Source: Alphaproteobacteria bacterium (GTDB lineage: Bacteria; Pseudomonadota; Alphaproteobacteria; RF32; CAG-239). Taken from it: a stretch of DNA of 64,000 nt. A model generated the notes under the pieces. That model worked only from the letters and a program-made list of their open reading frames with translations. It did not search any database and was not told the DNA's origin. The DNA lies in NCBI GenBank assembly GCA_017937705.1, contig JAGBDC010000016.1:27518-91517 (forward strand), given 5' to 3'. Of this stretch, positions 1 through 46,526 are shown piece by piece; positions within the stretch are counted from its first letter, which is position 1; each line of letters begins with the position of its first letter. The position numbers and the translations under genes are program-made.

Positions 1-3000
1 AGTTTACACTTCCTAAAGTTGATCCTGTTCCTCTTGCCTTTAACTGATCATAGTCATTGTATACCTCATCATAATTAAAGCTACTCCGATCAAAATAACA
101 ATATACTGTTGCATAACCTTCAAGTTCGCGAAAATGAACAGGGAATAAATTCCAGTAAACATCATCTTGTCCAATATCGGTGTCTAAAACTCCCAAGGAT
201 TCTGTCCAATGTGCTGCAGGATAAATGAAGCCAAGAACTGCTCCCCATCCTCCAAAGTTTTCTCTAGTACATCCGGTACTATCTTCTTGAAATTTTCCAC
301 AATAAGGAAGCACCATAGCCCTTAGCCAAGTACTTTTCTGAAATTCTAAAGGATCTATGTACCTCTCTCCTGTTACCGGATCAACATCAGCATAACTATT
401 TATGTTAAGATTTGGAACTATATCTAATTTACCATCTCCCTTGGGTATTGCTCTACCGGCAACTGCCATATTCCATCCGGCAGGTGTCAAAGTTATGGAT
501 TTTGCATATCCCGGAGGACATTGCGGAGTTGGAATAAATCCTGCGTATGGAGAAACTTCATTCCCGGCATTTTCTCCAACTTCTGTAGTAGGTATATCAA
601 CAGTATTAGGTGTCCAAGTAACATTTGGATCATAAGTAGTATCAACTACATAAATACCTTTATTAATAAAGTCAGGCAAAATATCGCTCAAACGTGCACC
701 ACCTCGAGTAGTAAGTTTAATATCATGCATTACTGAAGTATACGCAGGATTAACTTCATATCCGTCGTATGGCACATATTTTTTGGTTCCTCCTCCTAAT
801 GCATATCCTCCCTCATTACCAATATTGCTACTGCTCAATATATCACTCGGTTTATAGTGTGAAATAAATCTATCAGCAGCAATATATCCGACTGCATCAG
901 TTTCGCCATTCTCATATTGAGCATTTATTATAGTATTAGTAAGTTTTCTGTTGTTAGTTTCATCAACATTACTCTCTAATGCCATAGAACCACGGCGAAT
1001 ATAAACCGAACCGTTTTTAGAAAGACGATTTGAATTATTAACTAAGTCTGTTTGATATACCCCTTTACCACTATCAACTGTAAATACTTGAACTTTATCA
1101 GATCTATAATTATTAATTGCATATTCAACAGGGTCGTTTTGACTTGTATAAGTTGCATTAGGAGATCTAATTTGAAAAATACCAGTAGATGCATACACGG
1201 CAGCAGCAGCCCCATAATAGCCTGATCTGTTATTTTCATGATTATATCGTTTATATCCGTCATCATAAGATTTTCTCATATCAAAATTAGAATCATAAAT
1301 AGCCAATCCTCCGACAAAACGAGACGTCAGAGTTTGTGCTGACGGAATAATATCAACAATCGGATTTCCTGATGTTCCTGCAATAATAAAGCTAGAATCC
1401 GCCATATACACTCTTCCCCATGAGGTAGGACCATAGCCACCTCTATAATACTCATGTTTTCCGTCAGTAAAATAATCAGCATTATATCTATACTGATTCC
1501 AAAGCCAATTAGACATAAGATTTACTTGATGAGAAAACATATCTACAGTTTGCCAACCTAAATCGTTTTTATAAACTCTAAGCGTTTGTCCTTGAATAGA
1601 AACAGGAGCATTTGTCATATTTCCATTTTCATCAACAGTAGAAATGTTAACACCTTTTTCAGCACCTATTCTAACAATAGAATCTTCTGGAGAATCGGTA
1701 ACTTTATATGTTCTTGAAGCATCATCATAGTGTACTAAATATGCACTACCTGCGGAAATATCTACACCTCTTGCTCCGTCGAGGGCATCGGCGGTACTGA
1801 TAGAAACACCTCCGGGGATAACTCGTCCGGTATTGTCCGTTGTTTCCGTATCAGAAATAGTCATCATCGGAATTTCATTGGTACCAACAATAAAGCGGCC
1901 ACCATCTTGATCCATTTTCGCAACAGTATAAAAATCTGTATCATTTTCTGCTGTAGCAAAATCTTCAGGAGCAACACCACCACGCAAAGTTGATGCATCA
2001 ACATCAAGAGCTTTCAATTTACCCGTCAATAAAGTATCTTTAACAAAAGCAGCTCCATTAACTGATAATGCATAAAAACTTTCATTCATAGCATCCGGTT
2101 CAGGAGTATCTCCCGTCCATGCATATTCCTTATACTCTCCTTTATGAGCTTTGGCTACCCCATCATCTTTTTTAATAACAGTATACCATCTGTAATCTAC
2201 ATTTCCAGCAGTAGAATCTCTAAAAACATTCAAATGCCCATCACCAGCGCGGAATTTATCTTTATCAGCATACAATGTCTCCCCCTCCGGTTGAGCGGGG
2301 GTTGTCCCATTTGCAGGAACGGCAGATGTTCCAAAAGTCATACTTCCTGCAGATTTTACCGTTAATTTAGTTTTTCCGGCTCCGGGGTCTCCATAAACCA
2401 TCTCATCGGATGCAACTTTGAATACCGGTTTATCCGCACGCTTAGTAGTTATCGGCTTGGTACCTGTAGCAGGATCTAATGGACCTTCCACATTGGTTGT
2501 GGCAAAATATTTGATACCATCATCTTTCACCGTAAACAGAGAGTTCATAGCCTGTAAAGCACCTTCTACATAGGCACCACCACCTTTGGCAATGTATAAA
2601 GCTTTATCCAAGGTATTACCAAAACCGGCAGGATCAAGAGTATCCGCAGGAACATCTTCTTCACGGGTAGATGCAACATCGGCTCCTTTGACCATTCTAT
2701 CAACATTAGGATGCATAATGATTTGGTTTACAAGACGAATGTTTCTTGTATCTCCAACGTTATATCCCATAAATAAATCGGTTTCCATTGTGTTTAACTC
2801 ATCAGCGGCATCAGGTTCGTTTTTACGGTGCAGAACATCTTCATTAGCTAACCCTTGTGAAGAAATCGGCTGAACCGAAGAAACCACAAACGAGTTATCA
2901 ACTAATCCGCCGCCTAATTCAGATGTAGGTACACTCCAAATACCTTGAGCTCCCATAGCAACCTGCTCTGTTCCTTCCGTAGTAACATAACCACCATTAC

Positions 3001-3532
3001 TACCAATCATACTGGCAATACGAGAAGCTCGAACTGATCCTATTTCATCCGGAATTTTAGGAGTTGCGGTAACAAATCCGGTCAAGGTTTGGCTCAACAC
3101 CTTCCCCCCCTGAATATCACTTTCGAGTTTTATTATAACATTATATTCATCATCAAAAATTTTTGTTTCTCTGGGAGTTCCATCTGCTTTCAAAAAACCA
3201 TACGGCAAATAATCGCCAAAGTGAGTAATGCTAACCGGCCCTACTTGTCCTTCTGCAGCATTCTTAAAGCCGGAAAAGTCTAACTCATGTCCTGCACTAT
3301 CCGTTATTTTCTCACCCTTGGTAATGCGAGCAAAATTATCCTTCAAATAGCCATCAATTGCCGTAGACAATGCTCGCATTTGCGCAGAAGCATTAACGTC
3401 TTGCAATTCCACCGTTCTCTCCGATGCCTTTTTGTACAGCACAGGAGTAACCATGGCTATCAAGCCTAACATCGCCATTGCTTCAACCAGCAACGTACCT
3501 GTTTCATTAACCTTTTTAAATATCTTTTTCAT
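1..3532 (-). CDS. Giant protein with a prepilin-type (class III) N-terminal signal. It is 5'-complete, and its 3' end runs past the window edge (more than 1176 aa visible).
   Basis: Hand translation of the minus strand from the ATG at 3532 gives MKKIFKKVNETG|TLLVEAMAMLGLIAMVTPVLY. That is a basic leader, Gly at -1, Glu at +5 and about 20 hydrophobic residues. An AGGAGA RBS lies 6 nt upstream. The frame stays open to position 1. The mature part is rich in Gly, Tyr, Asn and Thr. It is absent from the ORF track because no stop codon falls inside the window. Confidence 0.6.
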   Translation of the reverse strand, partial: MKKIFKKVNETGTLLVEAMAMLGLIAMVTPVLYKKASERTVELQDVNASAQMRALSTAIDGYLKDNFARITKGEKITDSAGHELDFSGFKNAAEGQVGPVSITHFGDYLPYGFLKADGTPRETKIFDDEYNVIIKLESDIQGGKVLSQTLTGFVTATPKIPDEIGSVRASRIASMIGSNGGYVTTEGTEQVAMGAQGIWSVPTSELGGGLVDNSFVVSSVQPISSQGLANEDVLHRKNEPDAADELNTMETDLFMGYNVGDTRNIRLVNQIIMHPNVDRMVKGADVASTREEDVPADTLDPAGFGNTLDKALYIAKGGGAYVEGALQAMNSLFTVKDDGIKYFATTNVEGPLDPATGTKPITTKRADKPVFKVASDEMVYGDPGAGKTKLTVKSAGSMTFGTSAVPANGTTPAQPEGETLYADKDKFRAGDGHLNVFRDSTAGNVDYRWYTVIKKDDGVAKAHKGEYKEYAWTGDTPEPDAMNESFYALSVNGAAFVKDTLLTGKLKALDVDASTLRGGVAPEDFATAENDTDFYTVAKMDQDGGRFIVGTNEIPMMTISDTETTDNTGRVIPGGVSISTADALDGARGVDISAGSAYLVHYDDASRTYKVTDSPEDSIVRIGAEKGVNISTVDENGNMTNAPVSIQGQTLRVYKNDLGWQTVDMFSHQVNLMSNWLWNQYRYNADYFTDGKHEYYRGGYGPTSWGRVYMADSSFIIAGTSGNPIVDIIPSAQTLTSRFVGGLAIYDSNFDMRKSYDDGYKRYNHENNRSGYYGAAAAVYASTGIFQIRSPNATYTSQNDPVEYAINNYRSDKVQVFTVDSGKGVYQTDLVNNSNRLSKNGSVYIRRGSMALESNVDETNNRKLTNTIINAQYENGETDAVGYIAADRFISHYKPSDILSSSNIGNEGGYALGGGTKKYVPYDGYEVNPAYTSVMHDIKLTTRGGARLSDILPDFINKGIYVVDTTYDPNVTWTPNTVDIPTTEVGENAGNEVSPYAGFIPTPQCPPGYAKSITLTPAGWNMAVAGRAIPKGDGKLDIVPNLNINSYADVDPVTGERYIDPLEFQKSTWLRAMVLPYCGKFQEDSTGCTRENFGGWGAVLGFIYPAAHWTESLGVLDTDIGQDDVYWNLFPVHFRELEGYATVYCYFDRSSFNYDEVYNDYDQLKARGTGSTLGSVN

Positions 3533-3547
3533 TTTCAGTCTCCTGCC

Positions 3548-4402
3548 TTAAAGTGCTGACATATAAATTAAACAATATTCACACTGCTTATAATAAGCAT
3601 CGCTACCTTCATCTTCATCTGGATCTATAGCCGATGCATTGATTCCACTTCCGCATACATGATTAAATGACCGGTCTGCAGCAATACCGGATAAATTGTT
3701 ATGGCTCATATATTTCGGAATTGAATAATATCCTCTACTTCCTTGTCCTACAATACCATAGGGGGTACCTAAAGTATTATAATCAACGGCAACTTCATTT
3801 CCGTTTTTATCATGAATAACACCGCCTCCGGTAGTAGGTTTATCTTTTTCCACATTAACCACATAACCGAAGCCGTTAACATAGCCCAAAGTATCTTTCA
3901 TCGCATTTAACAACTCAGCACTGGGCTTACCGGTTTTAATATCACGCCACTTATATGGAACACATCCGTATGTAACCAAATATACGACTCGATTTTTTGC
4001 CGCACAACAATTGTTTGTCACCGCCGGCGTAGGATTAGCCGGATCTCCGCCTCCCGTTTGACAGTCCGTAGGTAAGGCAGAATGCCCTACACTATTCCTA
4101 TCCAGACAATAAATTGCAGTAGTAAACGTTGCTGTTCCGGAAGTTGCATTAAAACCATACGGAGCATATCCTTTCAAGTCATCCATAGTAACTTCGCCGG
4201 CCTCATATCCGACTCCGCCATCTGCTCCGCTTGTCCGATTTTTATGAATATATTTCATTGCGGCACGATGTTGGGTATATATTTTGGTAACAACATTTTG
4301 AGCTTGTGGCTCGACAAACAAATGCTTCATATCCGGCCGCAAAGACGTGGACATAAAAGCTATCGCTGTAATAAACGTTGCAATAATTACCCAAAGATAC
4401 AT
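3548..4402 (-). CDS. Hypothetical exported or membrane-anchored Gly/Thr/Tyr-rich protein with 10 Cys, co-operonic with the giant pilin-like gene
   Basis: Track ORF of 284 aa with a hydrophobic N-terminal segment (YLWVIIATFITAIAFMSTSL). An in-frame stop lies 2 codons upstream of the ATG. Its stop codon is 15 nt from the next gene's start. Confidence 0.5.
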   Translation of the reverse strand: MYLWVIIATFITAIAFMSTSLRPDMKHLFVEPQAQNVVTKIYTQHRAAMKYIHKNRTSGADGGVGYEAGEVTMDDLKGYAPYGFNATSGTATFTTAIYCLDRNSVGHSALPTDCQTGGGDPANPTPAVTNNCCAAKNRVVYLVTYGCVPYKWRDIKTGKPSAELLNAMKDTLGYVNGFGYVVNVEKDKPTTGGGVIHDKNGNEVAVDYNTLGTPYGIVGQGSRGYYSIPKYMSHNNLSGIAADRSFNHVCGSGINASAIDPDEDEGSDAYYKQCEYCLIYMSAL

Positions 4403-4605
4403 GTCTTACCCCAAAAATAAACACTAATCACTATTGTGAGTTTATCATAAATATTTTTCAAATAAAAGCATTGAATCGTTAATATATACTAAAATTCATA
4501 TATCTGTAACAAATTTTTTACATTTTTAAATCATCTCAAAATAAATATTGTGATGTAAGCAAATATTGGATAAAATACTTGAATAAAACAAACACGGATA
4601 CAGAA

Positions 4606-5406
4606 ATGAATAATAAAAGCGATATATCTGTCAGTAACCTACTGTCAACTGAGGAAATAACCGCACTTTTAAGCGGACAGCAAAAAAAAGAAACAAATAA
4701 TATTTTATCCTTTTTTACCTCTTCGGAATATAAGAAACAATCTGATATCTACACACATAGAATCAACAAAAAATTGTTGGAAATATATCGTGTCGATGCA
4801 AACATCATACCGACTATCCCCTCTTTTGACAATAATGACTTTTTTATTGCTTTTTCAATAGAAAACGAAGAGCAATCAGGAAAAATTTTGCTGTCAAAAA
4901 CTTTTTGCTCAAACATAATAAATCTTGTTTTAGGCGGTAAAACACAGGGAAGTGATATAACCAGAACACCGTCTACAATTAAAATAATTGAAAATATTGT
5001 CAAAGTTTTTTGCGAAACATTAATTTCCTCAAATGCAAAAATAATCATGTACGAACAACCGTACAACATTTCCGGTATATGCTCCGAAAATTGCTTTTCA
5101 TTCACACTGTCTGAAGGCGGTATGTTTTGCTTAATATTTCCGGAAATAAAAACAAAAAATGATATACAATACGAGAATAACAATTCATTGAGTGTGGATA
5201 TACCACTAACAATAAGCGCTGTTGTTAAGCAATCTGAAGTATCATTGCAAAATCTGTCAACATGGAAAATCGGAGACTTTTTGCCAATGGGTATTGAAAA
5301 AAACGCAGAAATATCTATACTATGTGAAAACAAGCCGTTATTTAAAGCCGTTATGGGGCAAAAAAACAATAATATTGCAGTTAAAATAACCAAGAAAGAG
5401 AAATAA
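4606..5406 (+). CDS. FliM/FliN-family protein (flagellar switch or T3SS C-ring-like), with an N-terminal CheY-binding-like LSxEEIxALLSG peptide and a C-terminal SpoA (FliN) domain
   Basis: The track ORF starts at 4579 (TTG); an ATG at 4606 gives MNNKSDISVSNLLSTEEITALLSG. The C-terminal 70 aa (VDIPLTISAVVKQ...IAVKITK) match the FliN/SpoA pattern. Confidence 0.55.
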   Translation: MNNKSDISVSNLLSTEEITALLSGQQKKETNNILSFFTSSEYKKQSDIYTHRINKKLLEIYRVDANIIPTIPSFDNNDFFIAFSIENEEQSGKILLSKTFCSNIINLVLGGKTQGSDITRTPSTIKIIENIVKVFCETLISSNAKIIMYEQPYNISGICSENCFSFTLSEGGMFCLIFPEIKTKNDIQYENNNSLSVDIPLTISAVVKQSEVSLQNLSTWKIGDFLPMGIEKNAEISILCENKPLFKAVMGQKNNNIAVKITKKEK

Positions 5407-5407
5407 A

Positions 5408-5845
5408 ATGAACAATATCGAATTAGCAATCAATATAACTGTCATCATCCTTTTAGTTGCGACCATAATTTGCATTTGGCGTTTTAGCCGCAACTTGTCG
5501 GTTTTACGCAACAAACACGACAGTCTGCAAAATTTAGTATTAGCTCTCAACACCGCTGCAGATAAAGCCAACAACGCCATAAACGGATTGAAAGCTACAG
5601 TAAACGAAGCTTCTCTAAACGTTGATATGGCTATTGAAAAGGCCCAAATTGCCGAAGAAAAATTGCTAAAAACCACTCGCAATATTTCAAAAGAAGCCGA
5701 TTTTTCTTACACGCCATCTACTCCGCAAAATCGCTTGGTCAAAAATATTCAACAACAATTTGAGCCAAATTTTGAAGAAGACAACAATGAAGAAAAATCA
5801 GAATCTGAAATAGAATTATTAAAAGTTTTACGTTCCATAAGGTAG
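5408..5845 (+). CDS. Hypothetical single-TM coiled-coil protein with an acidic C-terminus
   Basis: Track ORF of 145 aa. The start overlaps the previous stop codon (TAAAATG). It has an N-terminal TM helix (ITVIILLVATIICIW) followed by heptad-like sequence. Confidence 0.45.
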   Translation: MNNIELAINITVIILLVATIICIWRFSRNLSVLRNKHDSLQNLVLALNTAADKANNAINGLKATVNEASLNVDMAIEKAQIAEEKLLKTTRNISKEADFSYTPSTPQNRLVKNIQQQFEPNFEEDNNEEKSESEIELLKVLRSIR

Positions 5846-5855
5846 GAGAGTAACT

Positions 5856-6248
5856 TTGTCATCAAAACACTTAAAAATATTATTTGTTTTATTAATTTTC
5901 ACCGCCTCACTGCTTGTGGGTATAAAAACTTTTGTCATAATCGCAGATTTATACCACAAAAATCCGAATGTTGCGGCGGATTCTTGCCTTATGCAAAATT
6001 ATGACGAACTAAATCAAATCAGCAATGAATTAGAATCTCGTCGCCTTGAAATAGAAACCAAAACAGATGTATTAAATGCTTTAAGTGCTGAAATTGACGA
6101 TAAATTAGAAATGTTACAACAAGCAGAAAATAATCTTTTGCATTTAATACAAACACACAACAACAGTTTACAAAACAATGTTTCTGTAACTACTGATGCT
6201 GAAACAGAAACGGTTATAATTGAAATCGGCAATACCGATGAACAATAA
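5856..6248 (+). CDS. Hypothetical single-TM coiled-coil protein (TTG start)
   Basis: Track ORF of 130 aa with an AGGAGA RBS 5-6 nt upstream. It has an N-terminal TM helix followed by coiled coil. The 3' end overlaps the uvrB start. Confidence 0.4.
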
Positions 6249-27447: not shown

Positions 27448-27831
27448 TTATACGCGGCGGCGTTTACGCAAACGACAACCGTTGTGTGGAATCGGAGTTA
27501 CATCACGAATCGTTGTAATTGTAAAACCAATAACTTGCAAAGCTCTGATAGCAGATTCACGACCAGAACCCGGTCCTTTAACTTCTACTTCAAGAGTTTT
27601 CACACCACACTCCATAGCCTTTCTTCCGGCATCTTCAGCAGCTACTTGAGCAGCATAAGGTGTAGACTTACGAGAGCCTTTGAAACCTTGTGCGCCTGCA
27701 GTAGCCCAAGAAACGGTATTGCCTTGAGCGTCTGTAATTGTAATACGAGTATTATTGAAAGTAGAATTCACATGTGCGACACCAGCTGTGATATTCTTCT
27801 TTTCTTTTTTCTTCTGTGTTGCTTTTGCCAT
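27448..27831 (-). CDS. rpsK: 30S ribosomal protein S11
   Basis: Protein of 127 aa, conserved. Confidence 0.95.
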
Positions 27832-28342: not shown

Positions 28343-29026
28343 TTACAAATGCTCTTTCAAATTCAGCAGCTTATCGATACGAGCAGCGACCACATCAACC
28401 GTTCCGTTACCGTCTACACTGCGCAAAACCCCTTTATCCCGATAGTACGAAATAGTCGGATATGTAAAATCTCGATATTTCACTAAACGTTTTTCTACGG
28501 TTTCCTTTGTATCATCGAGTCGTTTTGAAAACTTAAAACCGCCACATATATCACATACACCGGCAACTTTAGGTTTATGAAACTTATCACTATAATTCTC
28601 ACCACATGTAACACATGTATAACGGCCCATGATGCGATCAACAATAATTTCATCAGGAACCAATATTTCTAAAACAGCGTCTAATTTGATTCCTTTTTCA
28701 GCGAGCATTCCATCCAAAAATTCTGCCTGCTTGATTGTTCTTGGAAAACCGTCCAAAATAAACCCATTAACACAATCAGGCTCTTCGATTCGACGAGAAA
28801 CCATTTCAATTATCAGTTCGTCGGGAGCAAAATTTCCACCAGCCAATAGCGGTTCTAATTTTTTTCCAACTTCAGAACCTTTTCGAATTTCATCTCTTAA
28901 CATTTCTCCTGCCGACAAATGGCATATACCGAACTCCCTTTTCAAAACACCGGCTTGAGTACCTTTGCCTGTTCCGGGAGCTCCGGTTATAACCAAATGC
29001 AGACCTTTATTTTGGCCTATAAACAT
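28343..29026 (-). CDS. adk: Adenylate kinase (long zinc-lid type)
   Basis: P-loop GAPGTGKGTQ with Cys4 lid CVTCGENY...CDICGG. Confidence 0.9.
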   Translation of the reverse strand: MFIGQNKGLHLVITGAPGTGKGTQAGVLKREFGICHLSAGEMLRDEIRKGSEVGKKLEPLLAGGNFAPDELIIEMVSRRIEEPDCVNGFILDGFPRTIKQAEFLDGMLAEKGIKLDAVLEILVPDEIIVDRIMGRYTCVTCGENYSDKFHKPKVAGVCDICGGFKFSKRLDDTKETVEKRLVKYRDFTYPTISYYRDKGVLRSVDGNGTVDVVAARIDKLLNLKEHL

Positions 29027-30423
29027 TATTTTCTTTTACCTTTCTTATTTACCAATGCAGCCCTTTTCAATAATCCCTCATATTGATAAGCGATAAGATG
29101 GGTTTGAACTTGACCGACAAAATCCATCGTAACCTGAACCACGATAAGTAAAGTGGTACCACCTAATACAAATGGTACAGAAAGTTTAGAAATCAACACT
29201 TCCGGCAAAATACACAAAGCAGTTAAATATGCTGCACCTAAAACTGTTAATCTGGTAATTACATAGTCTAAATATTCAGCAGTGTTTTTACCCGGACGAA
29301 TACCGGCAACAAAACCTCCGTGTTTTTTCAAATTGTCAGCAGTATCTTCAGGATTGAACACTACTGCAGTATAGAAAAATGCGAAGAAAATAATCAATGC
29401 AGAATACAATGCCAAATACAATGGCTGTCCATGACCAAGTAAACGGCTCAATGTCTGAACCCAACTTGGACCGCTATTAGCAGAAAAGTTAGCAATAGTA
29501 ATCGGCAACAACAGCAAAGAGCTTGCAAAAATCGGAGGAATAACACCTGTCGGGTTTATCTTCAAAGGCAAGTGAGAACTTTCTGCTGAAGTCATTTTCA
29601 TACCCATTTGACGCTTTGGATACTGGATAACTATTTTTCTTTGAGCTCTTTCAACCAAAACAATTACATAAACCAAAGCCAAAACCATAGCCATTAACAT
29701 CAAAATAACCCAAATAGACATAGATCCTACACGACCTAACTCAAAAGTTTGAGCCAAAGCTGTAGGAATATTAGCAATGATACCGACGGTAATAATTAAT
29801 GACGAACCATTACCGACACCTCTTGATGTAATCTGATCTCCGAGCCACACAATAAACATTGTACCGCCAACCAAAGAAACGATTGTTGTAAATCTGAACA
29901 CAAAACCCGGCATAACAACAGCTGATGCGCCACTTCCGGCAGTCATACCTTCAAGACCTACAGCAATACCATAACCTTGAATAATGGTAATCAATACTGT
30001 TAAAACTTTTGTATAGTGAACCATTTTACGGTGTCCAGCTTCACCTTCTTTTTTCAAAGCCGCCAAAGATGGAATAATAGACTGTCCGAGTTGCAAAATA
30101 ATAGAAGCCGAAATATAAGGCATAATATTAAGTGCAAAAATAGTCATACGTTCTAACGCACCACCGGCAAACATATTAAACATACCGAGAATACCATTTC
30201 GGTTATTGTCAAATATTTGAGCCAAAATATGCGGATCAATACCCGGCAACGGGATAAAAGTTCCTAAACGAAAAACAATCAAAGCCAAAATTGTAAACCA
30301 CAATCTTTTCTTTAATTCTTCTGCTTTTCCAAAGGCTGACATATCCAAATTTGCAGCCATTTTTTCAGCAAGTGATACCATTTTTATTTCCTTACAATCA
30401 TTTAAAATAAACACACAGGGCAC
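29026..30423 (-). CDS. secY: Preprotein translocase subunit SecY
   Basis: Protein of 465 aa with 10 TM helices and conserved SecY motifs. The true start is probably a downstream Met (MVSLAEK). Confidence 0.95.
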   Translation of the reverse strand: MPCVFILNDCKEIKMVSLAEKMAANLDMSAFGKAEELKKRLWFTILALIVFRLGTFIPLPGIDPHILAQIFDNNRNGILGMFNMFAGGALERMTIFALNIMPYISASIILQLGQSIIPSLAALKKEGEAGHRKMVHYTKVLTVLITIIQGYGIAVGLEGMTAGSGASAVVMPGFVFRFTTIVSLVGGTMFIVWLGDQITSRGVGNGSSLIITVGIIANIPTALAQTFELGRVGSMSIWVILMLMAMVLALVYVIVLVERAQRKIVIQYPKRQMGMKMTSAESSHLPLKINPTGVIPPIFASSLLLLPITIANFSANSGPSWVQTLSRLLGHGQPLYLALYSALIIFFAFFYTAVVFNPEDTADNLKKHGGFVAGIRPGKNTAEYLDYVITRLTVLGAAYLTALCILPEVLISKLSVPFVLGGTTLLIVVQVTMDFVGQVQTHLIAYQYEGLLKRAALVNKKGKRK

Positions 30424-30516: not shown

Positions 30517-31083
30517 CTAAAACACCCAACAGATTGTATTATTGCTGTCATGACAAAGCTCAGTTGCTTTACTTATATTTACGGCTCCCTTAAATTCATT
30601 ACCGTTTCCGGACCCTAGTGTAGCCCCCGGAGCGTTTTTATTAATAGTAATTCTTAAAGCACTTTCCGTCACAGGTAAAGATAAGAGATTTACACACATA
30701 TCTTTGGTCAAATCTCCAAAGCGAATAACAAATTCATCTTTTGACGGATCAAGGTTATGCCCCACGGAACATCTGCCGTTCAAAGCGTGATAGCAATGTC
30801 CGTCATGCAACATTTCTGTCGGCAGAACTAACTGATTAATAACTCTTTCGTTATATAAATCATTTTTATTAGGATTGCCTAACATTAATGTATTATAATT
30901 AGATATAATGGTCGATATTTGATTAGCCGCTTCATTAACCTTAAATTTTTCCATCGCTTTGGTATATCCTGCAATTCCGGCAGTAGATAAAACTCCGATA
31001 ATAGCCAACACACCTAGCATCTCAATCATTGAACGGCCTTTTTCATTATTACATTTTGAGCAAACCATATATTTAATCTCCAT
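30517..31083 (-). CDS. Prepilin-type N-terminal domain protein (type IV pilin or pseudopilin-like) inserted between rplO and secY
   Basis: ...NNEKG|RSMIEMLGVLAIIGVLSTAGIAGY has Gly at -1 and Glu at +5. The track start at 31137 lies inside the rplO terminator hairpin, so I used the ATG at 31083. The exact start is uncertain. The mature part of about 160 aa contains 5 Cys. Confidence 0.55.
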   Translation of the reverse strand: MEIKYMVCSKCNNEKGRSMIEMLGVLAIIGVLSTAGIAGYTKAMEKFKVNEAANQISTIISNYNTLMLGNPNKNDLYNERVINQLVLPTEMLHDGHCYHALNGRCSVGHNLDPSKDEFVIRFGDLTKDMCVNLLSLPVTESALRITINKNAPGATLGSGNGNEFKGAVNISKATELCHDSNNTICWVF

Positions 31084-31166: not shown

Positions 31167-31631
31167 TTAAGCGATAATGTTTACTTTACCGCCAGCTTTT
31201 TCAATTGCAGCAACAGCAGCTTTAGAAGCTGAATTTACTGAAACTGTAACAGCCGATGTAACAGCACCGCGAGCCAACAAACGAACACCATCATAGGTTT
31301 TGTTGATAAGACCTGCATTGCTCAAAGCTTCCAAATCAACGTTATCTGCTTTCAATTTTCCGGCATCAATAGCTGTTTGCAATGTGTCAAGGTTGATAAC
31401 TGCAAAAACTTTAGCAAACGGATTATTGAAACCACGTTTCGGAAGTCTGCGGTAAATAGGCATTTGACCGCCTTCAAATCCATTGATAGCAACACCGCTA
31501 CGTGATTTTTGGCCTTTTTGACCGTGGCTTGAAGTTTTACCTTTGCCACTACCAATACCACGACCAACACGAATACGATTTTTGGTTGCTCCTTGGTTAT
31601 CTTTTAATTCATTAAGTTTCATATCTTTCAC
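31167..31631 (-). CDS. rplO: 50S ribosomal protein L15
   Basis: Protein of 154 aa, conserved. Confidence 0.95.
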
Positions 31632-42471: not shown

Positions 42472-45400
42472 CTATCTACTTTCTCTGTCGGGACGAGATA
42501 ACGGCAATTTAATTTTGTCTGTCGGAATGTCATTTTCAACTTCGTTTATTTGCGGATTTTTAATATCATTACTTATGCAATCGAGAGCGTAGGAACGAAA
42601 TTCTTTTAACTTATCGGCACTACATCCCTTATCCGTAATCAACTCCGCATTTGTTTTGTTTTTATTCCATATTGCAATGGCATAAACTTTTTCTTCATCT
42701 TTCAAAACAATACACCTGTCGCCCTTTAACCAATCTATTTCATCTTTGCTCGAAAATAGTGAAAAAGCTCTTAAGTCTTCATCGTCACCGGCTTTAATAA
42801 CAATTCTCTCTATTGTTTCTTGATTTGCATTAGGGTTGTTTTTTATAATTCTTTGAACCTCGGCATCTGTATAACCTTCATAACCATCGGGAAGAGGATT
42901 AGTCGATGAAATTATTTGCCCCTCTAAATAGATATCATTCCCACTATTACCAACGGTTATATACTTATAATTATCTTTTGAAAACTCTTCAACCATTCCC
43001 AAAAATAAAGTTTCTACCTGTTCTTCACAATGTTCATGTGTATCGACCTCCACATTATCAAAAGTAAGGCCTTTAAAGTTACCGTTTTGGCTCGCATAAA
43101 ACCAACTGCAGGCTACAATTTTCCACGGCTCATCTTCATTTTTTCTACTCTCAAAAATTAAACATCCCGAATTAGGGTTAATAACACTGTCTACGGCACA
43201 AGGGCCACCGACATCTCCATAACTTTGGCAACAGGATGTTTTTTCTCCGACAAACAAAATTCGAACATCATCCTTTTTGGCAACCAAACATCTAAAATTT
43301 TTGTCACTGCTATAAAGAACAGGTTTATCGGCAAAACGTGAGGGAGTTATCATCCCTTTATAATAAATAACTTCTGCTTCATCGTATGTTTCTTGAGAAT
43401 CAACATAAGCAGAATTTTCAATAGCAAATTCTCTGCATGTATAATCAAAATTAATTTTTGATAAACGCTCATATACTTCGCTATATTTCATAGAGCTCAA
43501 TTCTTTATCCGTCAGATATTTCAATCGGGGGATTATTAAACTGAAATCATCTGAAAATTCCAAATCAGTACGTTCTATATCGTTCAAACTTCTTAGTCTT
43601 TTCTCTTCCAAATGAGGAGCATTAACTCGTAAAAAGGGCTGTCCGACAATATTTTTTGCCTTAATATTCTTATCTGCAAATTTTCGGATTCGTTCAAAAT
43701 CTGCTTTTGTGTTTATGGCTTTAACCATCCAACTTGTCGCTCTTTCAAAACCTATCGGTTTGAATTGTTCATCACTTATATAATTAGACGTCGCATAAAT
43801 TGTCCCTAGCAAACCATTTCTTTTGGCTGCAAGTCTGCGTCTTTCTCTTTTTATGTCAAACGACGAAGATGACAACACATTATTTTTCCATTCGTTAATA
43901 TATTTCTTAATATGAGAATCAATCTCATACAGGAACAAATTTTTCTTTAGAGCAACTCGAGCTAACAAAGCACTGTCAGGTAAATTTTCAAGACTCTTGA
44001 GAATAAAATCGGTCGCTAAGTACATAAACTCAAGTTCTTCTTTTTTATCATCATATTCATTTGACTTTTTCCAAAACTCATCTTGTCTTTTGGGAATTTG
44101 CTCATTGTAGTTTTCGATGGTTCGAAAATAATTCATATATTCTTTACCATAAATTTTGGCACACGCTATTGCAGAAGGAATAACCCATTGAGTATTGGCA
44201 TCTTCTTCTTTTTCGAAAATATATTTTTTTATATTCAAATATACACCGATGTTAAAGTCCTTACAAAAACCAGCCCCATTAGTCAGTAATGTCATTTTTT
44301 CATCAAGACTTAATTTTTGCGATGACAATATCCGATTAATATGTATTTTTTCTTCACTGGTTAATGACCGATACTCTTTTTCTATATCGGAATATTTCTT
44401 TTTCCATAATAAATGATTATCCGTCGCATATCTATATCGAGCATCCCATTTATTAAAATATTTCTTTACGGTTTCTGCCAGTTGCAATTCCACAAAAACA
44501 TTCGGCATTTTATCACCGACAGATAACAAAAAGCTTTTATACGCATCAAGCCCTATTCTGATTTCTCTATAATTCCAACGATTATTGCAATATTTTTCGT
44601 CATTCAACCAAAATTCGGGCAAAACTTTTTTATCTTTTGCTAATGCCACGCTTTTATCAGCTTGTTCCGAAAAATGAGAAGCAAACTCATTTAAAAATTT
44701 CAAAGCAGCAATTTGTCCGTCACAATCCATTTTTTGCGGAAGCATTTCAAACATCTTCAAAATACGTTCCGGCTGCACTTTAGATTTAATAGTTATTTGC
44801 TCTAAACAATTCAACATTGATGAGTATTTACATTTTTCAGGTAACACAGAAACGTATATTTTCCATATTTTAATACATTCATCTGATAATTGCGGACAGT
44901 CTTTCAAAATTGTTGCTAAAATTCTATCTATCTGATACGGAGGAATTGTCCCTGTATCATTCATTTTGCAATGATGATGAGCCAGTTTTTTAATATCTGA
45001 CACAATTTGTTTCATCATATCTTCATTATCAGGTTGTGTTGCCACATGTTCAACTATGTCTAAAACAGATTCCCAATACGTGTGAAGAAGCTGGGTTTTA
45101 GGCTCTTTAATCTTTCCAAAATTAGCAATATTTCCTTTAATACATTCAAACGCTTGTTGAAAATATCCTCTTTTTATCAATAAAGGACAAAAATTATTAG
45201 ATGTATTTTGGGCTAATAACAAAATATCCGGTATAATTTTTTCATTAGGATAATCATCCGGTAACATTTCATAAAAATCTAGAACATCACCGATAATATC
45301 GCGGTTATGAGCTACTTTTTTTATCAGTAACGGAATTTCATTGTGAAAGAGTTCAACGGCTTTATCTCTAAACTCATCATGTACAACAAAATCCATACAT

Positions 45401-46401
45401 AGTGAATTAAAATCAGGAATAACTCGTGTTTTATTTTTTTGAACCGATTGAACCAAACTAAACAAAATATTTTTATCAACTCTCGGCTCTTCTGAAAATT
45501 CTTTTGCCAACAACAGAGCATAACAACAAAACTCATCACTTATGTTTTTTTGTTTTAATTGTTTGTCAATTTTGCTTATTTCATCAATATAAATTTGAAT
45601 ACTTCGTTCATTGTGATCAGATTTGAACATATCCCCGCTGATGAAATTACCGTTTAAAGCAGCAACATTAAGAATATCCAAAGTTTTTCTTCTGATATCC
45701 GGTGTAATATTATTGGCCTTGAGAATATTTGCACATACATCAGAAATATTATCTCCGCAATCAATACTGTTTTTTATATTTTTAGCGGCAAAATCAAGAT
45801 GACTAAACAGAATATGTATATGTTCGTTATTGTTCATATCCGAAATACCGGCAAAAGCAACAATAGCATCCGTATATACTTCAGCATCTGTTTCTTCTAT
45901 AACTCTGGATGGAACAGCTCTTAACATTTTGCCGATTAGTTGTGTTTGTTCATCGATTCTGTTATCTTCATCTGCACCATCTCTGATTATATCTTTGGCA
46001 TAATCCAAAATCTCATAATATGCTTCTTTATTTCCGGTGGAGTTTGCTATTGTTTTTTCCAAAATACGTAAAGCTTCCGTAGTCTTTTTTCCCGGCCAGA
46101 CATTTCTAGAAACGCAATTTACAAATTCTCGGCTATATTCATACCCGTTTTTTTGAGAAAATTTTTCAATCAGACCTAATGTGCTATCGCTATGCAATTC
46201 GGTTAAAGTTTTATAAAAAATTTTACAGAGTTTTGAAGATGGTTTTTCAAATTTCGGAGAAGAAACAACTTTTTCCAATAAATTAATTAATTCTGTATTA
46301 CGCAAAATTACGGAAGAACATATATTACCTATAATATTTTCGCAATCTTCATTAGATTGTATCTCTGATATTTGCTGTTCAAAGCTTTTAAAAACGCTCA
46401 T
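42472..46401 (-). CDS. Very large (1309 aa) orphan hypothetical protein with no signal peptide and a Cys/His-rich C-terminal region
   Basis: The track ORF begins with TTG at 46422. A GGAGGT RBS lies 6 nt before the ATG at 46401 (MSVFKSFEQ). There is no TM helix or signal peptide. The gene is markedly AT-rich, at about 25-30% GC by eye. Confidence 0.6.
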   Translation of the reverse strand: MSVFKSFEQQISEIQSNEDCENIIGNICSSVILRNTELINLLEKVVSSPKFEKPSSKLCKIFYKTLTELHSDSTLGLIEKFSQKNGYEYSREFVNCVSRNVWPGKKTTEALRILEKTIANSTGNKEAYYEILDYAKDIIRDGADEDNRIDEQTQLIGKMLRAVPSRVIEETDAEVYTDAIVAFAGISDMNNNEHIHILFSHLDFAAKNIKNSIDCGDNISDVCANILKANNITPDIRRKTLDILNVAALNGNFISGDMFKSDHNERSIQIYIDEISKIDKQLKQKNISDEFCCYALLLAKEFSEEPRVDKNILFSLVQSVQKNKTRVIPDFNSLCMDFVVHDEFRDKAVELFHNEIPLLIKKVAHNRDIIGDVLDFYEMLPDDYPNEKIIPDILLLAQNTSNNFCPLLIKRGYFQQAFECIKGNIANFGKIKEPKTQLLHTYWESVLDIVEHVATQPDNEDMMKQIVSDIKKLAHHHCKMNDTGTIPPYQIDRILATILKDCPQLSDECIKIWKIYVSVLPEKCKYSSMLNCLEQITIKSKVQPERILKMFEMLPQKMDCDGQIAALKFLNEFASHFSEQADKSVALAKDKKVLPEFWLNDEKYCNNRWNYREIRIGLDAYKSFLLSVGDKMPNVFVELQLAETVKKYFNKWDARYRYATDNHLLWKKKYSDIEKEYRSLTSEEKIHINRILSSQKLSLDEKMTLLTNGAGFCKDFNIGVYLNIKKYIFEKEEDANTQWVIPSAIACAKIYGKEYMNYFRTIENYNEQIPKRQDEFWKKSNEYDDKKEELEFMYLATDFILKSLENLPDSALLARVALKKNLFLYEIDSHIKKYINEWKNNVLSSSSFDIKRERRRLAAKRNGLLGTIYATSNYISDEQFKPIGFERATSWMVKAINTKADFERIRKFADKNIKAKNIVGQPFLRVNAPHLEEKRLRSLNDIERTDLEFSDDFSLIIPRLKYLTDKELSSMKYSEVYERLSKINFDYTCREFAIENSAYVDSQETYDEAEVIYYKGMITPSRFADKPVLYSSDKNFRCLVAKKDDVRILFVGEKTSCCQSYGDVGGPCAVDSVINPNSGCLIFESRKNEDEPWKIVACSWFYASQNGNFKGLTFDNVEVDTHEHCEEQVETLFLGMVEEFSKDNYKYITVGNSGNDIYLEGQIISSTNPLPDGYEGYTDAEVQRIIKNNPNANQETIERIVIKAGDDEDLRAFSLFSSKDEIDWLKGDRCIVLKDEEKVYAIAIWNKNKTNAELITDKGCSADKLKEFRSYALDCISNDIKNPQINEVENDIPTDKIKLPLSRPDRESR

Positions 46402-46526
46402 ACATACCTCCGTAACGAGCAAAATGTTACCATATTATAAAAATTTTTGCAAATTATAAAAAAGTTCTTTATTTTTCAAAAAAATATGTTATATGTTGAC
46501 TATTCTTTCATATTAAGTTTTTGAAA

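Follow-up and report, generated by a model that had tools for sequence, protein, structure and literature searches.

A giant pilin-like protein and its upstream partner as a candidate tip complex of a type IVb pilus in uncultured gut Alphaproteobacteria

The window analysed here is the whole of a 64,000-nucleotide stretch of DNA from an Alphaproteobacteria bacterium (GTDB lineage Alphaproteobacteria; RF32; CAG-239), taken from positions 27,518 to 91,517 of the forward strand of contig JAGBDC010000016.1 (assembly GCA_017937705.1). At one end it carries two adjacent minus-strand genes: one for a very large protein that begins like a pilin (1-3532, hereafter the giant), and directly upstream a smaller one (3548-4402, hereafter the partner). 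We propose, with a probability that we put at roughly 60%, that the giant is a 1,204-residue modular minor pilin of the type IVb kind and that it forms a tip or priming complex with the partner. Hundreds of uncultured Alphaproteobacteria from the gut conserve the pair, whose most likely role is to form the adhesive tip of a type IVb pilus. This proposal is built on the prepilin-type signal of the giant, the conservation of that signal, the pairing of the two genes, a paralogy between them that we hold with moderate confidence, a predicted fold, mosaicism within the giant, and a related genome in which the giant gene occurs together with type IVb pilins. The giant had been pointed out in an earlier note made by reading the letters of the window, and the features on which its interpretation as a pilin begins are the following.

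1-3532, minus strand: giant pilin-like gene, codons 1-1177 of 1204, with the last 27 codons and the stop off the window
3539-3544, minus strand: Shine-Dalgarno-like AGGAGA, 6 nt 5' of the ATG (3532-3530), as read in the sequence
3497-3532, minus strand: predicted leader MKKIFKKVNETG (residues 1-12), basic and ending in an invariant Gly at -1, from the alignment, with cleavage inferred
3434-3496, minus strand: alpha1-N TLLVEAMAMLGLIAMVTPVLY (residues 13-33) with an invariant Glu at +5, from conservation, hydropathy and a helix in the AlphaFold2 (AF2) model

Read on the minus strand from 3532 to 1, the frame runs through 1177 codons without a stop, in agreement with the earlier note, which had described an open reading frame (ORF) of more than 1170 residues starting at the ATG at 3532 behind an AGGAGA ribosome-binding site. 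Its N-terminus consists of MKKIFKKVNETG followed directly by TLLVEAMAMLGLIAMVTPVLY. An open frame of this length at 37% G+C is far beyond chance expectation, and 723 family representatives (E<=1e-3) back it. The frame does leave the window, as had been observed, by only 27 residues: a 99% identical full-length relative (P0001, 1204 residues) differs at 13 positions over the 1177 shared residues, extends 27 residues past the window edge and ends in ...RLNDPKLKYYDPW. Because this full-length relative adds just those 27 residues, the gene is intact rather than a pseudogene, and the disruption beyond the edge that had been raised as a concern was not found in P0001. A pseudogene is further rejected by the intact state of the gene in hundreds of genomes. 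The product is rich in Gly (10%), Thr (8.3%), Asp (8.1%), Asn (5.9%) and Tyr (5.4%). Cysteines had been reported near its C-terminal part; there are four (residues 1005, 1078, 1088 and 1145), all of them there, and Cys1005 and Cys1145 are invariant across 72 homologues.

The N-terminus has the hallmarks of a prepilin peptidase substrate (a class III signal), as first read: a short basic leader, Gly at -1, Glu at +5 and a hydrophobic helix, which in a hydropathy scan is the sole transmembrane-like stretch of the protein (residues 11-33). Gly12 and Glu17 are invariant in the 72-sequence alignment. Among 134 family representatives (50% identity clusters), 131 have the motif Gly-x4-Glu followed by a hydrophobic stretch within their first 80 residues, behind leaders of 8-27 residues (median 13), and the other three are truncated gene calls that start inside the helix. 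Since the motif is present in 131 of 134 and the exceptions are truncated calls, the Gly(-1)/Glu(+5) signature is a character of the family. Homologues lacking it would have pointed to a generic signal anchor; they retain it. Around the signal, the pattern NExG[TS][LM][LM][VI]EA[ML]A[MI]L[GA]L[IV][AS]M[VA]TP[VI]LY[KR]K stays nearly unchanged among proteins that are otherwise 35-40% identical. Residues 12-33 are better conserved than any other block of the protein, as expected for a pilin alpha1-N, with a mean frequency of the top residue of 0.90; the figure is 0.81 for residues 34-65 and 0.32-0.39 for residues 341-840. In a six-frame scan of the window for Gly-x4-Glu followed by an uncharged stretch, only two ORFs emerged, the giant and the gene at 30517-31083, which is taken up below. 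Both had been described as sharing a non-canonical +1 residue. Type IVa pilins usually have Phe at +1, and in type IVb pilins the +1 position is usually variable. The Thr of the giant, and the Ser, Gly or Thr found over its family, do depart from the type IVa Phe; as type IVb pilins usually vary at this position, the residue fits that class rather than being an oddity common to the two genes.

Relatives of the giant are numerous. A first search, in which candidates from a database clustered at 90% identity were scored, gave 182 matches at E<=1e-3, with full-length proteins of about 970-1310 residues; those with names are all 'hypothetical protein', and their metagenome-assembled genomes (MAGs) bear the label Alphaproteobacteria or Rhodospirillales. 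When 1.84 billion representatives were searched with a profile, 723 matched at E<=1e-3, of which 304 reached E<=1e-30; the best 150 of the 723 have lengths of 790-1471 residues. A pilin signal joined to a giant domain had been suggested as something to look for in other genomes; at least 257 GTDB species genomes carry a relative. Nearly all of the 80 such genomes listed are gut, rumen or faecal MAGs, under names such as 'Alphaproteobacteria bacterium', 'uncultured Azospirillum sp.' and 'Candidatus Scatocola'. NCBI taxonomy places Candidatus Scatocola in Rhodospirillales, and we take it to belong to GTDB order RF32. A literature search on pili in gut Alphaproteobacteria found nothing on the giant family. 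Three loci (L010, L051 and L068) are titled Bacteroidaceae, Lactobacillaceae and Lachnospiraceae and hold the alphaproteobacterial gene pair; they are probably mis-binned or mislabelled MAGs.

Conservation, structure prediction and comparison with a close relative (P0002) divide the giant into the following segments.

2858-3532, minus strand: predicted pilin-like module (residues 1-225), with a long N-terminal helix, an antiparallel beta-sheet, a helix at 161-176 and an invariant YLPYG at 108-112
2513-2857, minus strand: conserved low-confidence segment (residues 226-340), conservation 0.57-0.80, predicted local distance difference test (pLDDT) <55
953-2512, minus strand: beta-rich, poorly conserved central region (residues 341-860)
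1013-1765, minus strand: hypervariable cassette (residues ~590-840), from comparison with P0002
1-952, minus strand: conserved C-terminal domain (residues 861-1177 onward), with a near-invariant block NPAYTSVMHDIKLTTRGGARLSDILPDFINKGIYVVD and invariant Cys1005 and Cys1145

An AlphaFold model of the giant built on the full alignment has a mean pLDDT of 63. A helix (residues 2-65) opens it, and strands and a further helix then reach to about residue 218, all with pLDDT 75-80; residues 226-323 are of low confidence, 326-860 are beta-rich, 887-958 are again of low confidence, and the end is mixed alpha/beta. In a separate AF2 model of residues 1-340, residues 1-222 reach pLDDT 80-88, again with helix 2-65 followed by a beta-sheet. 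The predicted module has the layout of a pilin globular domain, in which an antiparallel beta-sheet packs against the C-terminal half of alpha1, and its best structural and profile matches are type IVb pilus proteins and minor pilins. In a profile-profile alignment (hhalign) of the giant with a PilS-like pilin family, leader, Gly and Glu fall in register (E 3e-4). One family member (P0079) matches Shufflon_N (PF04917, the constant region of PilV) over residues 123-269 with 28.9 bits, above the gathering cut-off of 27.5, and a second (P0081) gives a sub-threshold match to the same region (E 6.6e-4); the six other members tested have none. As modelled and aligned, a pilin module that comes nearest to the type IVb minor pilins takes up the first ~225 residues, and no fold can be recognised in the ~950 residues that follow. 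The earlier statement that no pilin family could be matched therefore holds for the ~950-residue extension and gives way for the N-terminal module, which resembles type IVb minor pilins. Nor did profile searches place the giant in a well-known family, which had been the other worry: Pfam and NCBIfam gave no usable match to the full protein or to N-terminal pieces of 73 and 237 residues, and the family profile, run against the sequences of the PDB, returned only a spurious match at E 0.36. A DDB1-type beta-propeller, suggested by Foldseek hits at E>=0.18, is neither significant nor credible.

Two parts of the giant combine strong conservation with low model confidence. Residues 226-340 contain SSxQPISSQGLANEDVLHRK...LNTMETDLFMG...NIRxVNQIIM and may be an interface or a linker. 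More narrowly, the segments at 2564-2857 and 659-874 on the minus strand (residues 226-323 and 887-958) are strongly conserved, residues 921-960 at 88-99%, at pLDDT <50, and may be contact surfaces for the partner or for further subunits. The cassette behaves differently. The giant of the window and P0002 are 97-100% identical outside residues ~590-840 and 20-55% identical inside (75% over 701-740), a clean mosaic that, judged from this alignment, implies recombinational replacement of an exposed segment. We saw no silent copies of the cassette in the window or in the +-10 kb loci and no invertible repeats nearby, and the central region of the giant contains no internal repeats.

The second member of the proposed complex is the gene immediately upstream.

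3548-4402, minus strand: partner gene, 284 residues, putative leaderless paralogue of the pilin-like module, from synteny, tblastn and hhalign

Its ORF stops 15 nt before the ATG of the giant. The partner lies directly upstream of the giant in 75 of 75 loci in which the N-terminus of the giant could be located, is 204-295 residues long and in most loci is separated from the giant by 2-26 bp; tblastn found it in 81 of 88 loci, and a distant 1471-residue family member is likewise paired with one. The protein starts at Met1 with MY[LIV]W and a stop codon closely precedes this start, so a cleavable class III leader ending in Gly is absent. Met1, Tyr2 and Trp4 are invariant, positions 5-7 are Val, Ile or Leu in 66 of 66 sequences, and no acidic residue occurs at positions 1-12. 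A single N-terminal transmembrane helix precedes a Cys-rich periplasmic part with near-invariant Cys99, Cys250 and Cys277. Pfam and NCBIfam gave no usable match to the partner, and hhalign of the partner with PilS-like pilins gave nothing (E 0.33). Aligned with residues 1-225 of the giant, the partner family scores a probability of 82% (E 1e-5), with a core of partner residues 29-99 on giant residues 40-126 and a common invariant YLPYGF; a relaxed alignment extends in the same order over partner 4-221 and giant 14-214. In this register Met1 of the partner falls at about the Gly(-1) of the giant, and Ile or Val falls on Glu5, on which basis we consider the partner, with moderate confidence, to be a leaderless paralogue of the pilin module that lacks Glu5 (E5-less). 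It has been proposed that the first, apical subunit of a pilus is a minor pilin with a hydrophobic +5 residue, and that this subunit needs an N-terminal amine and not Glu5 (PMC5207764).

A missing Glu5 also recalls type II secretion. The partner is like GspK-type E5-less tip subunits in its hydrophobic +5 residue and in the pilin-like gene that adjoins it. Unlike the partner, which starts at Met1 at the hydrophobic helix (MYxW), GspK has a cleavable class III leader, and GspK is the largest of its set whereas the partner is the smaller of its pair. The likeness nonetheless lends itself to a different explanation, in which partner and giant belong to a short periplasmic pseudopilus, type II secretion-like or Tad-like, with the large domain in the periplasm or at a secretin. 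The two would cap a piston in the manner of GspK-GspI-GspJ or would behave like the Tad pseudopilins and the membrane-anchored TadG. An E5-less, larger tip subunit is the signature of GspK (PMC5207764), and the sole sequence-profile match of the N-terminus of the giant is to the N-terminal region of GspG, at E 0.078. An uncleaved, membrane-anchored pilin-like partner would moreover resemble TadG. We nevertheless regard such a pseudopilus as unlikely: the giant matches no pseudopilin family of the type II secretion system (T2SS) in Pfam or NCBIfam and gives no TadE (PF07811) match (full protein at E<=0.01, N-terminus at E<=10), its best structural and profile matches are type IVb pilus proteins, the pilins seen in these genomes are of the bundlin/PilS type only, and a hypervariable cassette is expected on an external surface, not on a periplasmic part. 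Membership of the Tad pseudopilins TadE, TadF or TadG was rejected for want of a PF07811 match to the giant.

Upstream of the pair, on the opposite strand, the window holds a gene with a FliN C-terminal domain, a DUF6468 gene and a 130-residue gene (4579-6248, plus strand), followed by uvrB. The pair is divergent from a fliL/fliM/fliN-DUF6468 cluster in the window and in many relatives. It could thus be asked whether the N-terminus of the giant is a generic signal anchor and the pair a component of the flagellar apparatus or of some other envelope structure, as the directly upstream FliN and DUF6468 genes and the lack of any N_methyl model match to the giant would allow. In 42 of 74 loci the partner has a FliN-like gene no more than 2.5 kb away, and the other 32 (e.g. 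L006 and L095) lack this neighbourhood, whereas the partner is upstream of the giant in 75 of 75. Since the pairing with the partner holds at every locus where it can be checked and the flagellar neighbourhood does not, we treat the latter as lineage synteny. Nor do generic anchors have an invariant Gly and an invariant buried Glu whose spacing is fixed, as seen in 131 of 134 divergent representatives, and the fold matches point to pilins. We think a flagellar or generic-anchor explanation very improbable.

The window also contains a candidate major pilin, which belongs to the system that we propose though not to the locus of the pair.

30517-31083, minus strand: candidate type IVb (bundlin/PilS) major pilin, 188 residues, between rplO (31167-31631) and secY (29026-30423)

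The pilin-like character of this gene, noted before, is borne out. It matches Pfam N_methyl at E 5.7e-4 with 19.8 bits, just below the 21.2-bit cut-off, and its close homologues (89-91% identical) bear precomputed PilS and Bundlin matches. At least 7851 homologues make up its family, precomputed Bundlin and PilS domains being recorded for many of them, and the family profile finds BfpA (1zwt, 2.4e-17), TcpA (5.7e-4) and PilS (3e-3) in the PDB. Because of the N_methyl, Bundlin/PilS and BfpA/TcpA/PilS matches, its product is, by sequence comparison, a type IVb-class pilin. Pilins of this type occur in several copies per genome, scattered among housekeeping genes, here inside the ribosomal-protein operon between the genes for L15 and SecY. 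MAG JAFTWG01 has both an orthologue of the giant (L007) and two bundlin/PilS-type pilins (L088).

A metagenome scan with the pilin profile found many contigs in which bundlin/PilS-type pilins stand in an operon like those of R64 and the toxin-coregulated pilus (TCP), in the order TcpQ-like gene, secretin, PilO, a gene of unknown function, T2SSE ATPase, T2SSF platform protein and two to four pilins, some operons adding a second, PilT-like ATPase. Examples are L122 (364-12321), L176 (3177-14091) and L185 (3188-17932), gut contigs with a G+C content of 48-52%. NCBI has names for two proteins closely homologous to the operon ATPase, 'MAG: GspE/PulE family protein [Alphaproteobacteria bacterium]' and 'ATPase, T2SS/T4P/T4SS family [Pseudomonadota bacterium]'. 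Within +-10 kb of these operons there is no A24 peptidase and no class III protein besides the major pilins; as the operons lack a class III minor pilin, they leave room for one encoded elsewhere. Two side observations were made on the same contigs. Divergent from the type IVb operon, L176 (444-2854, minus strand) and L185 (1-2867, minus strand) carry two or three TrbC/VirB2-like genes, one of which is fused to a long extension (530 to at least 998 residues). The first 'pilin' of the operon in L176 (12829-13389, plus strand) has a weak Bundlin match and a non-class III N-terminus (MDQRLDILRKINKKTAVAAGTALLAALLLIGFYGC...), so that these bacteria offer a second case of a pilin-like domain that lacks a prepilin signal.

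Several results weigh against a minor pilin. Neither PF07963 nor TIGR02532 matches the first 73 residues of the giant, even at E<=10, and the one profile match of its N-terminus, to GspG, is non-significant. Foldseek with the full model of the giant against the PDB returned no match with E below 0.1, nor even below 0.15, and the Shufflon_N match of P0079 does not reach the giant of the window itself. The homology of partner and giant hangs on one profile-profile match, at 82% probability. Pilus machinery is missing from the neighbourhood: the pilD/gspO and pilB/pilT/gspE genes that one would wish to see beside the giant did not turn up, there being no prepilin peptidase, ATPase, platform protein or secretin in the 64-kb window (Pfam, ~45 ORFs), and none within +-10 kb of the giant in ~90 loci. 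No A24 peptidase came out of Pfam on the ORFs of the window or out of motif scans for GspE-type Walker A and A24 sequences, which covered first 1.76 Mb and later 2.5 Mb of related loci. The gene contexts of five distant homologues of the giant and of four pilin paralogues likewise have no machinery beside them. Comparison of the operon contigs with giant-bearing genomes by blastn and tblastn found no link, and the operon-bearing NCBI MAG JBJEXH01 is not among the giant loci listed. Conversely, tblastn did not find the giant in the pilin-bearing loci examined, and the giant never lies near machinery genes. Unlike normal type IVb minor pilins, the giant is never inside a pilus operon.

It is mainly because the machinery and the peptidase were not found in a giant-bearing genome that the pseudopilus, the flagellar explanation and one further alternative keep some weight. 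In the last, the giant is a surface or envelope protein that uses its class III signal for targeting and processing only and is not polymerised. Such signals occur on substrates other than pilins (PMC3047682), archaeal sugar-binding proteins being a precedent, and a giant that is never in a pilus operon and is far larger than any pilin studied would suit this role. However, residues well past the signal are predicted to fold as a pilin module whose best matches are minor pilins, conservation spans the alpha1 polymerisation interface (residues 12-65, 0.81-0.90), and obligate pairing with an E5-less paralogue fits a filament-priming complex. We therefore judge a non-polymerised protein to be improbable. 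Of the roles first suggested (pilus-tip adhesin, toxin or pilin-anchored surface protein), fold and type IVb context favour a pilin; the toxin is without support and was dropped, as the giant contains no toxin or enzyme domain.

For the modular minor pilin that we favour, we infer cleavage, incorporation into a pilus, a tip location and an adhesin role, along the following lines. The giant would insert in the inner membrane via its N-terminal hydrophobic helix, and a prepilin peptidase would cut after Gly12, making Thr13 the +1 residue and Glu17 the Glu5 of the mature protein. The module of ~225 residues would dock in the helical core of a pilus of bundlin/PilS-type major pilins, and the other ~950 residues (conserved linker, variable beta-rich region and disulfide-containing C-terminal domain) would be displayed at the tip, like the extra domains of TcpB, CofB and PilV, because they are too bulky for the filament body. 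The partner, presumably a co-transcribed upstream paralogue, would be the apical first subunit, as in GspK-type pilins, and would need no peptidase, since its start coincides with the position of the cleavage site. Partner and giant together would make up the priming and tip complex, with the cassette as an exposed ligand-binding or antigenic surface.

Known systems offer partial parallels. The one minor pilin of a type IVb system is large, starts the assembly of the pilus and is found at its tip, and a first subunit characteristically has no Glu5 (PMC5207764). CofB occupies the tip as a trimer. Like TcpB of the Vibrio cholerae TCP and CofB/LngB of the enterotoxigenic Escherichia coli (ETEC) pili CFA/III and Longus, the giant has extra C-terminal domains after its pilin module; it is about three times their size (1204 versus 423-518 residues), shares no detectable sequence similarity with them and is set apart from them by its conserved C-terminal domain of unknown fold. 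It is also far larger than the 188-residue candidate major pilin. Where TCP and CFA/III have a single minor pilin, the giant has a leaderless, E5-less paralogue beside it and lies outside the pilus operon. PilV of the R64 IncI1 thin pilus (PF04917), a type IVb minor pilin that serves as an adhesin, joins a constant N-terminal region to a variable part that binds receptors. The giant resembles it in combining a conserved N-terminus with a swapped variable block, and P0079 scores above the Shufflon_N cut-off; PilV, however, varies through a C-terminal site-specific shufflon, whereas the variable block of the giant is internal (~590-840) and its C-terminus is conserved.

The design is that of modular pilins, in which effector modules are grafted onto a pilin module (PMC8179133). 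Streptococcus sanguinis PilB and PilC (PMC8179133) follow the principle that we propose for the giant, a carrier module with a bulky effector to be shown at the tip. The modular-pilin survey relied on the IPR012902 signature together with a recognisable InterPro domain, and its most extreme multi-domain case has 860 residues (PMC8179133); the giant is larger, matches neither PF07963 nor TIGR02532 and is without a known domain. With the PilY1/PilC tip adhesins of type IVa pili it has in common its size (~1000-1200 residues), a presumed tip-adhesin role and a variable part. PilY1, however, does not belong to the pilins: it carries a Sec signal, and its C-terminal part is a beta-propeller. Membership of PilY1/PilC, whose domain is named IPR008707 (PMC8179133), was rejected because the giant has no Pfam match of any kind and its propeller matches in Foldseek are non-significant. 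In sum, the giant differs from known type IVb minor pilins in size, in matching no signature model, in its off-operon location, in its leaderless paralogue and in its internal allelic cassette.

Two further observations concern the rest of the window. A promoter scan of 1-5000 found promoter-like sites no more numerous than in shuffles, and terminator-like sites there are only about 2 standard deviations above shuffles. Beside metG, a 1316-residue ORF (42472-46422, minus strand) is rich in Lys, Glu and Asn and has no NCBIfam match.

Type IV pili are central to gut colonisation by pathogens, as with TCP, CFA/III and the bundle-forming pilus (BFP), and to our knowledge almost nothing has been reported on the type IV pili of commensal, uncultured gut Alphaproteobacteria. 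Surveys of pilins based on signatures would miss the giant family, which comprises at least 723 sequence clusters and is represented in at least 257 species genomes. If the giant is indeed a minor pilin, its family would be the largest pilin class described, and the giant itself would be the likely host- or particle-binding tip of these bacteria. The allelic cassette would point to diversifying selection by immune pressure, phage or ligand switching, and the leaderless paralogue would be a natural test of the idea that the first subunit needs an N-terminal amine and not Glu5. Minor pilins could then be encoded far from their machinery, which is relevant to the annotation of 'incomplete' type IVb operons. 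A more elaborate version, which we put forward tentatively and consider rather doubtful, would have a leaderless partner, independent of the peptidase, at the apex of a two-protein priming complex, offering its free N-terminus to the Glu5 of the giant below; such a complex, of a type so far undescribed, would act in trans for type IVb operons whose own minor pilin has been lost, and the swappable 250-residue cassette would set host or ligand specificity across a lineage of gut commensals.

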